The notes beneath the pieces were generated by a model. That model worked only from the letters and a program-made list of their open reading frames with translations, ran no database searches and had not been told where the DNA came from. The position numbers and the translations under genes are program-made. Source: a virus. Taken from it: a DNA stretch of 41,827 nucleotides. Of the stretch, positions 9,206-30,192 are shown piece by piece. The stretch lies in the UHGV virus genome UHGV-0360402; one strand, 5' to 3'. How positions within the stretch are numbered: position 1 is the stretch's first letter; every line of letters starts with the position of its first letter.

Positions 9206-9217
9206 GTGACATGTCAC
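9206..9217. repeat. 12-bp palindrome GTGACATGTCAC (copy 1 of 3)
   Basis: Exact copies also at 27730 and 30181. Confidence 0.8.
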
Positions 9218-9231
9218 GATAGTTCAGTTTT

Positions 9232-9486
9232 GCACATCCCTGTGCCGCCGTTCTGTCAGAAGAACCCTGCCTTGTCGTTGATGTACTCCGCGTGCGTCTG
9301 GATATCACGCAGGCATTTGCTCACACCAACGATGTAGCAGAACATGGTTGTCAGCTCCGCCGCCGCGCCCGATACATCATGCCCGTCTTCCTGTAACTGG
9401 TTCAGCAGATTCATCAGCAGTGAGTGCTCCGTCAGGCCGAGAACACCAGACGGAGAATGAATCAGGCTGCGGTAGCCGGGCTTCAG
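9232..9486. repeat. Inverted repeat, right arm (pairs with 8163-8416)
   Basis: Reverse complement about 96% identical to left arm. Confidence 0.85.
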
Positions 9487-10194
9487 CGGATAACCATAAC
9501 ATTTTGTCTGTGTTTTAATTGCCTCACGAAGCGCATCTAACATCTTGACTGCCACTTCATCATTCTCTGATGCAGATCCAGCAGGGAGATACTCCCCTTC
9601 AAGCGGAACCCGAGCAACAAGAGACAACGCTTCGGCGAATTGATCTTCATCAATTTCTTTGTACGAACAGCCAAAATGAGATTTCAGTGACGACCACATG
9701 GTGATCATCGCCTTAGCCTGTTTTTCTTTTGGCAGAGACTGACCGCGACTCATGACGAGTTGTTTAATGGCTTCCTGCTGTTCAGTGGTGATTTTACCCG
9801 GCAACGCCTTTTTAGCTTTGCGTGGGTTAACTACATGGCCTTTAGTCCAGTAATCGTAGAGCACATCGTCACACTCTTCCTGATACTGGATTACCTTGTC
9901 GCGGATTTCAGGGCGTACTTTGTTTGGACTGATGCTGTTCAACCAAGCTGCCAATTTTCGTAAAGCCATACAAATCATGGCTTGCACCCCACCGGCAGAA
10001 GGTATGGTGATTTCCACCATACCCTTCGAGAAGCGTTGAGAAATCTTCTTATGTTGAGATTTCCAGTCTAGCCCCATTCCCTCAACGATAGGTTTCATTG
10101 GGGTATACGGTTCACCGTTGTGATTGACAACATAAAGCTCTGCGCCGTGGAATGGCACGTTGATAGTAGATACCGCTGTTGCTATACTCGTCAT
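9256..10194 (-). CDS. Antirepressor (P22 Ant-like N-terminal region fused to shared C-terminal module; 312 aa)
   Basis: ATG 10194; downstream of Arc-like gene as in P22 immI; N-terminal pattern typical of phage antirepressor N-domains. Confidence 0.75.
   Translation of the reverse strand: MTSIATAVSTINVPFHGAELYVVNHNGEPYTPMKPIVEGMGLDWKSQHKKISQRFSKGMVEITIPSAGGVQAMICMALRKLAAWLNSISPNKVRPEIRDKVIQYQEECDDVLYDYWTKGHVVNPRKAKKALPGKITTEQQEAIKQLVMSRGQSLPKEKQAKAMITMWSSLKSHFGCSYKEIDEDQFAEALSLVARVPLEGEYLPAGSASENDEVAVKMLDALREAIKTQTKCYGYPLKPGYRSLIHSPSGVLGLTEHSLLMNLLNQLQEDGHDVSGAAAELTTMFCYIVGVSKCLRDIQTHAEYINDKAGFF
10160..10188 (+). promoter_or_regulatory. Near-consensus sigma70 promoter TTGATA-17-TATACT reading antisense into the ant 5' region
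   Basis: -35 at 10160-10165, -10 at 10183-10188; inside the first codons of ant on the opposite strand. Confidence 0.55.
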
Positions 10195-10269
10195 GTCGTT
10201 AATTCCTATACGTAGTTTTACGATACTGAAGCCCTGACGGTCTGGCCACCGTTGGGCTTCGCTGTTTTA
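10195..10269 (+). ncRNA. Candidate sar-like antisense RNA covering ant RBS and arc-ant intergenic region
   Basis: Promoter at 10160-10188; terminator hairpin 10228-10260 then GCTGTTTTA; layout mirrors P22 sar. Confidence 0.45.
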
Positions 10270-10434
10270 TGCCACGCTATTCTTCTCACCAGTGAGTCCA
10301 TACACTTTCCTCAGCTGATAGATAATCTCTGTATTGAACTTTCGGCATTCTTTTTCGCCATTTCTTTCAATAGCTAACTTCACATCGTCCGGAAAACGAA
10401 CTCGTCGTTGACACATCTCTTTTGCTTTTTGCAT
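10267..10434 (-). CDS. Arc-like ribbon-helix-helix repressor (55 aa)
   Basis: AAGGAG RBS 7 nt before ATG 10434; RFPDDVKLAIERNGEKECRKFNTEIIYQL fits Arc/Mnt RHH pattern; directly upstream of ant. Confidence 0.7.
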   Translation of the reverse strand: MQKAKEMCQRRVRFPDDVKLAIERNGEKECRKFNTEIIYQLRKVYGLTGEKNSVA

Positions 10435-10449
10435 TTCATATCTCCTTAG

Positions 10450-10508
10450 CCCCACGGTGGGGCAAAACAATTGTCACACCGTGCGTCATTGATGTCAAGC
10501 ACACGGTG
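10450..10508. promoter_or_regulatory. Divergent arc/mnt control region with CACGGTG-type palindromes
   Basis: 13-bp palindrome CCCCACGGTGGGG (10450-10462) overlapping arc RBS, plus inverted CACCGTG (10477) and CACGGTG (10502). Confidence 0.5.
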
Positions 10509-10554
10509 AGGCATACTTCAATCATTGCAAGTAACTCAATATTTGGTGAAGAAC

Positions 10555-27815: not shown

Positions 27816-29291
27816 TTAAGCATATGGATCGTAATCTGTGATGGCCTTGCCTTGCTGGTTCTGCTGCCCGGGAATTCGCAGACGCTTCGACACAGGGAAC
27901 GCAAACGTCAGCAGTAGCGCATCGCCTTTACCAGGAGAACGCCCAAGCCGCTCCTTGATATCTTCCTTCGGTTCGATAACGATTTTACCGTCCACTCGAA
28001 CTTTGTACTCTGCCGCCGACAGGTCGTCCGCTGTTTCCTGGTCATCCAGCATGCCGCCCAGCCTCAGCCATGTCTTACATGAGTTGAACATCTCCCCGCG
28101 CTTGTTGAGCATCTGAGGGTCAGTTGACGCACCACCGAACGGAACAAGTTGCCATGTACGACCCCAGCCATCACCGATTGACTTCAGACCGGTTCCGTAA
28201 CCGAAGTCGATGAACACCGCGTCAGCATTGTACTGGTCTTCAAAGTCAGCGATACGCTTCGCCATAATCAGATCGTCGGTGGTCTTGTTACCAGTCCATA
28301 GCACCTTACTGTGCAGCCCCTGCCGCAGGTATATCACCGCGTCATCAACGCCTGAGTATGCCGGGTCAACGCCGATTATCACCGGAGCATGTGCAACCTG
28401 CGCAGCGGTGACCACCCGTTTCATTGCCTCGTCAGTAAGTCCGGTAGGGATAAACTGCAATTCAGATGCATCCGGGAATATGCCGCGCACACGGATTTTA
28501 ACGAAGTCGCTGTCTTCCCCGTAGTCATCAACCCATTTCTGCAACTGCTGTTTGTTAGTGCCTTCCACCGTCCGGCTGTCAATCTGCGCAGTTTTCCAGC
28601 GGTGTTTGTATTTGCGGAAACATTCGCGAAAACGCCCGGTATTACGTGTAGGGTTTCCGAACGCCACCCAGATAATCTCAGTGTCTTCGTCCGTAAGCGC
28701 ACCCTCAGCAACTTCCCACACCAGATCCGCAATGTTCGACGCTTCATCGAATACCACGATGATGCGTTTTCGCTCGTTGTGTAGTCCGGCGAATGCCTCA
28801 GTGTTGTGCTCAGACCAGGGGATTGCGTCAGCTCGCCACCGCTTGTCGTGCCCAGGATCATTGCTGTACATCGCGGTAGCGGTACAGGTAAACCAGTCTT
28901 TCGTGATAGCAAGGTTCGACCACTTGATAATTTCCGGCCAGGTCTTCGTTCGTAGCTGGTTGTCGGTGTTGGCGGTCACCACGACCTTACAATCCTCGCA
29001 AGTGGACATGCCCCAGTTGATCAACATTGAGATGTATGCTGATTTACCAATACCGTGACCCGAAGCACGTGCCAGCATAAGCGGCTGATAGCGCGTCTCG
29101 GGATTCTGCAGGTGATCACGTATCTCTCGGAACGCATCGGCCTGCCACTGACGTGGGCCGGTAGCATGTGCCAGTTCAGTCCCCTCTTCCCCCCACGGGA
29201 ACGCATAGAGGGCATAGCCAAGCGGATCGTGAGTGAACCCTGCAATATCCTCGATCAACTGCTCTTCAGGAGATAACGCTGCATCTGTCAC
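27816..29291 (-). CDS. Terminase large subunit (491 aa)
   Basis: GTG start coupled to terS stop; Walker-A-like GHGIGKS, acidic VVFDEAS and nuclease-region motifs. Confidence 0.85.
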   Translation of the reverse strand: MTDAALSPEEQLIEDIAGFTHDPLGYALYAFPWGEEGTELAHATGPRQWQADAFREIRDHLQNPETRYQPLMLARASGHGIGKSAYISMLINWGMSTCEDCKVVVTANTDNQLRTKTWPEIIKWSNLAITKDWFTCTATAMYSNDPGHDKRWRADAIPWSEHNTEAFAGLHNERKRIIVVFDEASNIADLVWEVAEGALTDEDTEIIWVAFGNPTRNTGRFRECFRKYKHRWKTAQIDSRTVEGTNKQQLQKWVDDYGEDSDFVKIRVRGIFPDASELQFIPTGLTDEAMKRVVTAAQVAHAPVIIGVDPAYSGVDDAVIYLRQGLHSKVLWTGNKTTDDLIMAKRIADFEDQYNADAVFIDFGYGTGLKSIGDGWGRTWQLVPFGGASTDPQMLNKRGEMFNSCKTWLRLGGMLDDQETADDLSAAEYKVRVDGKIVIEPKEDIKERLGRSPGKGDALLLTFAFPVSKRLRIPGQQNQQGKAITDYDPYA

Positions 29292-29893
29292 TGATTGCCA
29301 TCCTGACGTTCTTTGAGTCGCTTCCTGGCTGCTGCTATGCGATCAGCAATTGTCACATTCACATTAACATCCAGGCGTTCTTTGAATGCGTTGACGTCGA
29401 CGTGCTTACCAATCAGTTCGAGGTTCTTCACCTTGTCAGGCCATTTAATTTTTTTGAGGATTGTCTCTATCGAATCCTCGTTCATGTTCATGATGGTCGA
29501 TGACAGATCAAAGCCACTAAGCGTAGTGCGCCAGATTTTCGGCCACTCGCGGATTGGCTTAAGGCTCCCATCGTCGTTGAGGATATCGATCACGTCCATC
29601 TGGTCGATCTCCACCAGGCGCATGAGAACGTAATCAGCACTGACGCGCATTCGTTTGTTGCGCTCCTCCATCAACTCGGCAATCCGTTTTTGAATGCGTT
29701 CATCGCGCATCATGACACTGGCTTTAACTGCCGCTGTATTTGGGGAGAATCCTGCGTTAATCGCTGCCTGAGTCTGGTTTTCAGGCGTTTTGATGTATGA
29801 CTGGCAATAAGCCTCCTGCATTGCTGTGAGCGGCTTAAATTGCGTTGATTTGCGTTTATAGGTTTTAGGTTCAGCAGGCATCATAACCACCAT
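29288..29893 (-). CDS. Terminase small subunit
   Basis: Immediately upstream of and coupled to terL; start taken at ATG 29893 (alternatives 29884/29881); the ORF-track TTG 29962 start would put an operator inside the coding sequence. Confidence 0.65.
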   Translation of the reverse strand: MVVMMPAEPKTYKRKSTQFKPLTAMQEAYCQSYIKTPENQTQAAINAGFSPNTAAVKASVMMRDERIQKRIAELMEERNKRMRVSADYVLMRLVEIDQMDVIDILNDDGSLKPIREWPKIWRTTLSGFDLSSTIMNMNEDSIETILKKIKWPDKVKNLELIGKHVDVNAFKERLDVNVNVTIADRIAAARKRLKERQDGNQ

Positions 29894-29901
29894 GGTAATA
29901 G

Positions 29902-29916
29902 TTACCGTTGTGGTAA
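29902..29916. promoter_or_regulatory. Operator-like palindrome TTACCgttgtGGTAA upstream of terS
   Basis: Perfect half-sites, flanked by direct GGTAATAG repeats. Confidence 0.55.
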
Positions 29917-29958
29917 TAGTACCATGCAAAATAAAGCCGCCATAGTTGGCGGCAGTAT

Positions 29959-30171
29959 TCAAAGTCCATCAAATTCATCGTAAAAACTCTCGTCAAGATA
30001 CCCTTCCCATTTACCGCGAATGAAAATTACATCCTCGCCGCAAGGGTGCTGACTGTCGATAACTATATCCCTCCTGGCGCAACCATACTTATGCATGAGA
30101 AATTTAACCTCTTTCGGAAAATTTGCTGAGTTATCTCTCATATCTTCAAGGTCGTAGCGTATTTTTGGCAT
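29959..30171 (-). CDS. Hypothetical protein (70 aa)
   Basis: ATG 30171 with AAGGTG RBS; directly downstream of palindrome copy 3. Confidence 0.5.
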   Translation of the reverse strand: MPKIRYDLEDMRDNSANFPKEVKFLMHKYGCARRDIVIDSQHPCGEDVIFIRGKWEGYLDESFYDEFDGL

Positions 30172-30180
30172 AACACCTTC

Positions 30181-30192
30181 GTGACATGTCAC
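30181..30192. repeat. 12-bp palindrome GTGACATGTCAC (copy 3 of 3)
   Basis: Exact; overlaps stop of 30189-30527 gene; preceded by TAACACC. Confidence 0.8.

Follow-up and report, generated by a model that had tools for sequence, protein, structure and literature searches.

A 14-bp dyad shared by temperate phages as the probable binding site of a small ribbon-helix-helix protein encoded beside it

An epsilon15/phiV10-like (Uetakevirus) prophage contains three copies of a 12-bp palindrome, GTGACATGTCAC, to which a small ribbon-helix-helix (RHH) protein, encoded beside one of the copies, most likely binds. The window analysed here is the whole stretch of 41,827 nucleotides. Each copy lies at the centre of a longer dyad of 14 bp, YGTGAC-NN-GTCACR. 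These sites are real, they are conserved, and their spacing is specific. Across phage families they are physically linked to the gp49 gene, and they vary in step with the strand of the protein that is predicted to contact DNA. From these comparisons we put the probability that the dyad is the cognate site of the phage's gp49-family protein at about 0.7, with the sites standing at the ends of transcription units and a roadblock or boundary as their most likely action.

Three copies of the dyad in the window

The three copies are identical, as the preliminary description had reported, and lie at 9206-9217, 27730-27741 and 30181-30192. In 100 dinucleotide-preserving shuffles of the window the expectation for GTGACATGTCAC was 0.00 matches. 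The looser pattern GTGACNNGTCAC was found 0.04 times per shuffle, and none of the 100 dinucleotide-preserving shuffles reached three. All three copies share one further base on each flank, giving Y-GTGACATGTCAC-R. Across 104 distinct site contexts the spacer of the dyad was 2 bp in every one, while any other spacer was found in 0-4 contexts.

Site S1 (9205..9218, TGTGACATGTCACG) is positioned just beyond the stop of the antirepressor gene ant (9256-10194, minus strand), at the end of a long minus-strand late/immI transcription unit. It directly adjoins (0 nt) a minus-strand terminator hairpin (9188..9205, AGGCCGCTTTCGCGGCCT followed by TGTTTTT), the stem of which is kept among relatives with a variable loop. 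Site S2 (27729..27742, CGTGACATGTCACA) is located between terL (27816-29291, minus) and an Sf6-gene-66-like ORF (27306-27725, plus), which converge on it, and 4 nt separate it from a plus-strand terminator hairpin (27746..27765, AGCCAGCCGATGAGCTGGCT followed by TTGTTTT). The earlier observation that two copies abut terminator hairpins is therefore correct. The palindrome itself was ruled out as an intrinsic terminator, since the 12-mer alone folds at -1.2 kcal/mol, like its shuffles, and the terminators are separate, adjoining hairpins.

Site S3 (30180..30193, again CGTGACATGTCACA, with its 12-mer core at 30181-30192) overlaps a stop codon, as first noted. The codon is the TGA (30191-30189, minus) of a 112-aa ORF, the gp49-like gene (30189..30527, minus), and the site is closely followed, on the minus strand, by the ribosome-binding site of the next ORF. 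A 70-aa ORF belonging to PHROG 1541 (29959..30171, minus) is inserted right after S3 where phiV10 has just a 9-codon remnant, which shows a mosaic junction abutting S3. Further along the interval between S3 and terS is a terminator-like hairpin (29936..29953, minus, GCCGCCAACTATGGCGGC followed by TTTATTTT), which the records of epsilon15 and phiV10 list as a terminator. Its distance from S3 is 22 nt in epsilon15, 41 nt in phiV10 and ~228 nt in the window. Just downstream of this hairpin and before terS are two neighbouring dyads that resemble prophage-repressor operators (29883..29917, ATTACC-N5-GGTAAT type), the equivalent of which is marked as repressor-binding in the epsilon15 record. The window holds 13 dyads of this type, none of them at a palindrome copy, and a role for the palindrome as the Uetakevirus prophage-repressor operator was ruled out because the motif is different.

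The preliminary description also stated that TAACACC precedes the second and third copies. It does abut the second, but at the third the bases TTC intervene. At the second copy these letters are the TAA stop of ORF 27306-27725 plus CACC, and at the third they are the reverse complement of GGTGTTA, the ribosome-binding site plus ATG of the next minus-strand ORF, so the sharing looks coincidental.

The dyad and the gp49 gene across phage families

A search of related prophages, proposed at the outset as a check, located the identical 12-mer in five other Uetakevirus members, at positions matching all three of the window's copies and in divergent flanks, with the exception of TL-2011b, which is without S2. 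In 6/6 Uetakevirus genomes examined the structural operon ends with a syntenic S1, and syntenic copies of S2 are present in phiV10, epsilon15, SPN1S and BUCT554. In TL-2011b the whole cassette of hairpin, S2 and gene is swapped, suggesting that not every site is indispensable.

The dyad also accompanies homologues of gp49 in N15-like, P2-like, ZF40-like and Vibrio K303-like phages, usually on or just past the stop codon of the homologue and often in ~3 copies per genome. The TGA occupies site positions 2-4, in the same register, in epsilon15, phiV10, N15-like phages, L093 and P2-like relatives. At the homologue loci L090, L092 and L094/95 there was no site within 10 kb. Some sites in ZF40 and N15 are inside coding sequence and away from terminators, and adjacency to terminators may thus be specific to the window's lineage. 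Non-palindromic centres (TG, CT, CC) are common in the family, with arms and spacing strictly kept, a pattern that is the signature of a dimeric DNA binder. Of the roles first suggested for the palindrome, that of a regulator site is supported by its synteny in Uetakevirus and by its travelling with one DNA-binding protein gene across several phage families.

The protein encoded at S3 belongs to the epsilon15 gp49 / N15 gp46 family, PHROG 536, which comprises 154 phage records (720 protein-cluster hits) and is annotated as "hypothetical protein / transcriptional regulator". It has an N-terminal basic helix, an RHH core by predicted fold and a C-terminal cysteine cluster, and the predicted fold contains the strand-helix-helix core of RHH (Arc/MetJ/CopG) proteins. 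No Pfam or NCBIfam model, curated RHH models included, matched gp49 above threshold. RHH_5 was touched by 2/57 family members, at E 0.013, and a Foldseek search of the PDB gave no significant match.

The predicted DNA-reading beta-strand and the centre of the dyad change together: strands of the RK-L-E type are found with AT, the RRD type with TG and the E-x-R type with GC. The number of independent clades behind this correspondence is about four or five, few enough that phylogenetic inertia contributes to it. It nevertheless supports a model in which the antiparallel beta-ribbon of an RHH dimer would read the bases of the dyad, and because the centre dinucleotide covaries with this strand, we conclude that the dyads are probably gp49's own binding sites.

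We infer binding by gp49, its stoichiometry and the regulatory outcome from these sequence patterns, and propose the following mechanism. The protein, an RHH protein with a zinc-type cysteine cluster at its C-terminus, would probably sit as a dimer on the dyad axis. Judging by covariation and fold, the central bases would be contacted by its two-stranded beta-ribbon, and the invariant GTGAC arms by invariant parts of the protein. The gp49 gene is the last of the delayed-early rightward operon, with its stop codon inside one site. The three sites mark the ends of transcription units, S3 that of the early operon, S2 that of the terminase pair and S1 that of the structural/immI operon. Bound protein could act there as a roadblock or boundary that limits read-through between adjoining units, including past gp49's own gene. 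Bridging between sites is also possible. The boundary or roadblock role is our best guess; it is extrapolated from site position only, that is, from the location of the sites at transcription-unit ends and next to terminators.

Other readings of the sites

The dyad could instead serve late promoters, as an upstream activator site or as one of their parts, through which gp49 or another factor turns on the terminase, head or lysis genes. S3 is upstream of terS, and in the Vibrio K303-like locus L087 one site precedes terS by ~20-30 nt while a second precedes the holin gene. Moreover, the gp49 gene holds the position that Q has in lambdoid phages, and terS is not preceded by a sigma-70-like promoter, which would fit dependence on an activator. 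We consider this reading unlikely, however. Among close relatives S3 and terS are separated by anything from ~40 to ~230 bp, with a terminator lying between them, and S1 stands at the late unit's 3′ end. The N15-like and ZF40-like phages have Q genes of their own, with sites in repA, cII and other coding regions, and the repressor-type operators right before terS and the portal block suggest separate promoter control. The preliminary description had raised a late-promoter part as one option, and this finds no support: promoter scans detected no sigma-70-like hexamers at any of the three copies, the spacing between the third copy and terS varies, and one copy is at the distal end of the late operon.

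The arms of the dyad raise a second alternative, that the sites are bound by host MatP or provide matS-like contacts to host MatP/MukBEF and chromosome organisation. The matS site is the 13-bp GTGAC-RNY-GTCAC, and prophages are reported to avoid it. All three window copies have arms identical to those of matS but a spacer of 2 bp, as do all the distinct contexts counted above, and the 3-bp spacing of matS hardly occurs at all. The centre dinucleotide tracks the phage protein and not the host, a site is welded to the stop codon of the gp49 gene, and in sequence gp49 shows no likeness to MatP (hhalign probability 0.4%). Together with the reported avoidance of matS by prophages, this makes either form of the MatP reading decidedly unlikely.

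A third possibility is that the palindrome is a signal for site-specific recombination or exchange at module junctions, or a conserved linker for homologous recombination. Similarity among relatives breaks exactly at the edges of S1 and S3, where phiV10, TL-2011b and the window diverge immediately on one side, and the cargo genes differ beside all three copies. The module-junction proposal of the preliminary description thus stands in a passive sense, in that mosaic breakpoints abut the copies; a site-specific role is unsupported, as there is no sign of a recombinase associated with the palindrome and N15-like and ZF40-like phages have the same dyad within conserved coding regions. Operon ends take up cargo in any case, and covariation with the RHH strand points to the target of a binding protein. 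As the main explanation recombination is highly improbable, although a passive linker role can coexist with the dyads being targets of gp49. Finally, an RNA element, either a small hairpin or copy-to-copy pairing at transcript 3′ ends that modulates termination or processing, would draw on the transcription of two copies immediately 5′ of terminator hairpins and on the ability of any two self-complementary copies in one transcript to pair, but it is barely credible given that the 12-mer folds no better than shuffles, the terminators fold without it, and non-palindromic centres occur with arms and spacing strictly kept.

Significance and comparison with known systems

The gp49-dyad pairing of protein and site is, by its co-occurrence in sequence, one apparently common to many temperate phages of enteric and Vibrio bacteria. 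An unannotated PHROG 536 protein is now tied to a precise 14-bp candidate site, and the site and gene can be annotated in at least five phage families. The association of beta-strand class with centre dinucleotide offers a candidate recognition code. Phages of the epsilon15/phiV10 type serve as reporter and typing phages for O157 and Salmonella, and to our knowledge their control of late genes and operon boundaries is essentially uncharacterised. In the full-text literature searched we found no description of the 12-mers, of matS-/MatP-like phage systems, of gp49 or of N15 late control.

Several known systems resemble parts of this arrangement. The Omega protein of pSM19035 and ParG-type proteins are small RHH dimers that bind inverted 7-bp repeats containing -TCAC- and serve as global regulators and architectural proteins. 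They share with gp49 the use of a small RHH protein on short -TCAC- units; gp49 differs in having a single dyad per locus rather than heptad arrays and in its C-terminal cysteine cluster, and most of its phages are without a partner ParA. Arc and Mnt of P22 are likewise phage-encoded RHH proteins on dyad-symmetric operators, the window has an ant gene beside S1, and Arc-like and Ant genes are annotated at the same place in TL-2011b, the window's closest relative. However, the operators of Arc and Mnt overlap one promoter (Pant), whereas the sites assigned to gp49 are scattered, within genes or where genes or operons end, with no adjoining promoter. An Arc-like RHH protein beside S1 was considered as the binder and rejected, since phiV10 and epsilon15 carry the sites in the absence of the arc-ant module.

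The dispersed SopB centromere repeats of the phage-plasmid N15 are a further parallel, being a few identical palindromes scattered near regulatory junctions of a temperate phage genome; Ravin and Lane are said to have found that they influence late expression. They have another sequence and a ParB-family binder, and integrating phages like that of the window are without a partition system. The N15-like locus L084 contains four copies of GGGACCATGGTCCC alongside its gp46-type site. We had considered these copies as a covarying version of the dyad, but dropped them because they resemble the F/N15 SopB centromere repeats and L084 has a normal GTGACTGGTCAC in repA. A weak lead comes from the C4 zinc-finger factors DksA and TraR, which bind RNA polymerase. 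The C-terminal half of gp49 (a long helix, CxxCG..P.., ..C) matches TraR and YbiI weakly (E 0.02 for TraR in a PDB profile search, hhalign probability 66%), with an incomplete second CxxC pair, but it lacks a match to Pfam zf-dskA_traR (PF01258) or a structural match.

The likeness extends furthest to MatP/matS, the Ter macrodomain organiser of E. coli. Both have perfect dyads with the same GTGAC/GTCAC arms, in few dispersed copies and with no operator cluster, and both have an RHH protein as the binder (for gp49, by prediction). They differ in that matS has a 3-bp spacer and a 13-bp core, against 2 bp and 12 bp in the gp49 dyad, in that gp49 is without the four-helix bundle of MatP, with only the RHH part superposing, and in that gp49 and its proposed sites both belong to phage genomes. 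Half-sites identical to those of matS at another spacing raise the question of interplay with host chromosome organisers. We speculate, as a doubtful extension, that gp49 and its dyads might be a phage-borne counterpart of MatP/matS, offset by 1 bp so that host MatP ignores the few dispersed sites. Bound to them, gp49 could link or insulate parts of the phage genome, or protect it from SMC complexes of the MukBEF type, and the TraR-like zinc domain might hand gp49 to passing RNA polymerase. If true, this would be an unrecognised layer of genome organisation and transcription control in podo-, sipho- and myoviruses of the gamma-proteobacteria that contain MatP.

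Palindrome copies and transcription-unit ends in the window

Exact copies of the 12-bp palindrome GTGACATGTCAC lie at 9206-9217 (S1), 27730-27741 (S2) and 30181-30192 (S3). The feature is real: three copies are observed where dinucleotide-preserving shuffles give 0.00, and the looser GTGACNNGTCAC is expected 0.04 times in the window, bearing out the preliminary description, which had placed the repetition beyond chance. A terminator scan agreed that two copies abut hairpins, one on the minus strand (9188-9205) that touches S1 and one on the plus strand (27746-27765), 4 nt from S2; another minus-strand hairpin (29936-29953) is located about 228 nt downstream of S3. 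The third copy does carry a stop codon, TGA at 30191-30189, which ends the minus-strand gp49 ORF (30189-30527). TAACACC, described as preceding both S2 and S3, is adjacent to S2 and not to S3; it stems from a stop codon in one occurrence and from a ribosome-binding site and ATG on the opposite strand in the other, and the two have unrelated causes.

The window is a Uetakevirus prophage of the epsilon15/phiV10 type. Its late genes occupy the minus strand in the order terS (29288-29962), terL (27816-29291), portal and then structural genes, which extend as far as about 11.6 kb. S3 stands at the end of the delayed-early operon, S2 between the convergent terL and an Sf6-gene-66-like ORF, and S1 after the final gene of the long late unit, in the window an antirepressor gene. 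The long terS ORF with a TTG start at 29962, annotated likewise in phiV10, begins over a terminator-like hairpin and two operator-like dyads (window 29883-29962; phiV10 41-110), and the real start is probably further downstream, as in the epsilon15 annotation. A tRNA-Arg (anticodon TCT, 27031-27107) between the terminase genes and the portal block adjoins two strong hairpin terminators (27151-27186 and 27271-27286).

Thirteen ATTACC-N5-GGTAAT dyads (at most 2 mismatches), the type annotated as prophage-repressor operator in the epsilon15 record, were found in the window against 1.3 expected, at 3024, 6236, 7356, 7449, 8464, 26693, 29883, 29901, 33644, 33706, 36013, 36725 and 36787. Two stand immediately before terS, past the S3-proximal terminator, the one at 26693 precedes the portal block, several lie beyond S1, and others are at the immunity region near 36 kb, ahead of the tail-fibre gene and ahead of cargo genes, a layout suggesting direct control of several late and moron promoters by the repressor. 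Repressor-type operators thus come after every palindrome when read in the late direction, with cargo genes intervening after S2 and S1.

The site and the gp49 gene across phages

Among Uetakevirus relatives, epsilon15 and SPN1S (Salmonella), phiV10 (E. coli) and BUCT554 (Enterobacter) carry the 12-mer at all three equivalent places, as the preliminary description would have it for a functional site, and the sequence flanking the conserved 12-mer differs in each. One phiV10 copy is GTGACATGTTAC, across the record junction, and S3 of BUCT554 is GTGACCTGTCAC. TL-2011b has S3 and S1 and lacks S2 because the cassette of hairpin, S2 and gene was exchanged whole, suggesting that S2 is dispensable or compensated; there (13690-13776, compared with window 27700-27840) a different terminator and a reverse gene replace the terminator, S2 and Sf6-gene-66-like cassette, with the breakpoint inside conserved ...GAGGATAAAA... 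directly after terL. A 70-aa ORF (PHROG 1541, function unknown; 29959-30171, minus strand) is inserted precisely between S3 and the terminator nearest terS; in phiV10 and TL-2011b it is reduced to 9 codons, its first ones joined to its last. The difference from phiV10 exemplifies how similarity ends at the S3 edge. In SPN1S, a one-mismatch copy, GTGACATGTCAT, overlaps the TGA stop of an Rz-like spanin gene at the lysis-cassette end (26722) and could represent a degenerate boundary site, the fourth in that genome; its counterpart is absent from the window. In 79 of 80 close viral contigs the 12-mer or a one-base variant is found no more than 3 kb from the gp49 gene.

Pooling all 208 loci (2.83 Mb), half-sites with a 2-bp spacer occurred in 104 distinct sequence contexts, compared with 0-4 for each other spacer within 0-7 and 0-3 for the inverted order, and C or T preceded GTGAC in 205 of 208 half-sites, so that the site can be written YGTGAC-NN-GTCACR. 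When IMG/VR was scanned for TGTGACATGTCACA, at least 120 stretches matched, and among those listed 32 had a homologue inside the retrieved piece and 95 came from homologue-carrying phage families.

Contigs encoding distant gp49 homologues were retrieved and checked for the site. N15 has GTGACTGGTCAC over the gp46 stop, a second copy within repA, and GTGACCAGTCAC at the repA operon end. The site is on the stop codon in 49/49 N15-like contigs; in these contigs, 883 kb in total, 105 sites occur where 0.84 would be expected, and versions with spacer 1, 3 or 4 are absent. Three copies of GTGACATGTCAC, one on the stop, are present in another N15-like lineage (L096/L097, 52% identity), and Pectobacterium myovirus ZF40 also has three, one of them 3 nt past the homologue gp22. 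Three GTGAC(G/A)CGTCAC copies apiece occur in Vibrio phage K303 and locus L087, and the site is at the gene end in L088, L093 and L098. P2-like contigs carry GTGACGCGTCAC at the gene end in about 50 of 54, overlapping the stop in the same register in the 4 loci inspected. The TGA forms site positions 2-4, after a codon ending in G, in the epsilon15-like, N15-like, L093 and P2-like lineages. In L090, L092 and L094/95 the homologue is present and the site was not found within 10 kb. Two P2-like loci (L170, L196) have an additional half-site, GCGTCAC, 25-30 bp downstream of the main dyad at the homologue end, which hints at cooperative binding or a second dimer.

The N15-like genomes also hold what looks like an independent second set of scattered palindromes. 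In L084, GGGACCATGGTCCC occurs four times, after Q (7804), before the holin gene (13481) and twice before terminase genes (16236, 16348), and N15 has TGCGACCATGGTCGCA at 41125 beside the annotated late promoter; these resemble the SopB centromere repeats that are dispersed in plasmid prophages of the N15 type.

Covariation of predicted strand and dyad centre

Within the same locus, the predicted DNA-reading strand class and the centre dinucleotide go together (137 unique homologues, 311 loci). Strand xRK[LFVM]E[LI]xLD accompanies AT, T[TS]RRDW[VI]LEP accompanies TG/CA, and INE[IV]RxRLEP (P2-like) and IKEVRIKMDE/IQELRLKVSK (Vibrio) accompany GC/AC. Both RRD/TG and KKVE/AT classes occur in the N15-like genome type, and at the repA-internal site, at an identical codon offset (612), the centre switches with the protein class, altering RepA from ...VTSH... 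to ...VTCH.... The proposal that the gp49 beta-ribbon reads the central bases of the dyad draws its best support from this covariation; invariant gp49 residues, with R8 and R13 of the basic helix as candidates, may read the invariant arms. Since the site also travels with the gp49 gene across phage families, the suggestion that it is a regulator site gains support, and the dyad is most likely, judging from sequence comparison, a functional element to which an uncharacterised RHH-zinc protein, widespread among phages, binds as its cognate site.

Function and alternative explanations

In Uetakevirus the sites are at transcription-unit ends, with S1 and S2 0-4 nt from hairpins and S3 22-228 nt upstream of one, and in N15-like and ZF40-like phages some lie within coding sequence (repA, a cII-like gene, gp08). 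The latter rules out a plain promoter-operator role and is consistent with a roadblock or architectural (bridging) role. We tentatively favour a boundary or roadblock function, and gp49 could also autoregulate at the stop codon of its own gene.

A late-promoter or activator element, as previously proposed, is improbable and has lost ground: distances vary, a terminator intervenes, S1 lies at the 3' end of the late unit, and other site carriers have Q genes. Slightly less probable still are targets of host MatP. The half-sites are identical to those of matS, and the host taxa of carrier phages presumably all contain MatP, which counts in its favour; however, the dyad spacer is strictly 2 bp and that of matS is 3, the centre tracks a phage protein, and gp49 has no sequence relation to MatP. 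Single 13-bp sequences with host matS spacing occur in K303 (GTGACACCGTCAC, 19491) and L203 (GTGACGCCGTCAC, 12938), which carry gp49 homologues too. Escherichia and Salmonella prophages lack matS in a published survey. Similarity between relatives stops exactly at the S1 and S3 edges, and this match of junctions to sites upholds one part of the proposed recombination signal, yet a recombinase is absent and some sites are intragenic, making that reading very unlikely. An RNA element is the least credible: shuffled sequences fold at least as well as the 12-mer does, and the centre is non-palindromic in many sites.

In full-text literature, within incomplete coverage that leaves an earlier description possible, the 12-mers, a phage MatP/matS-like system and the gp49 family were undescribed. 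An RHH regulator with a dyad operator is a known kind of system; the gp49/dyad pair is unusual in its dispersed copies, the stop codon within the site, arms like those of matS and a strand-to-centre code that can be read.
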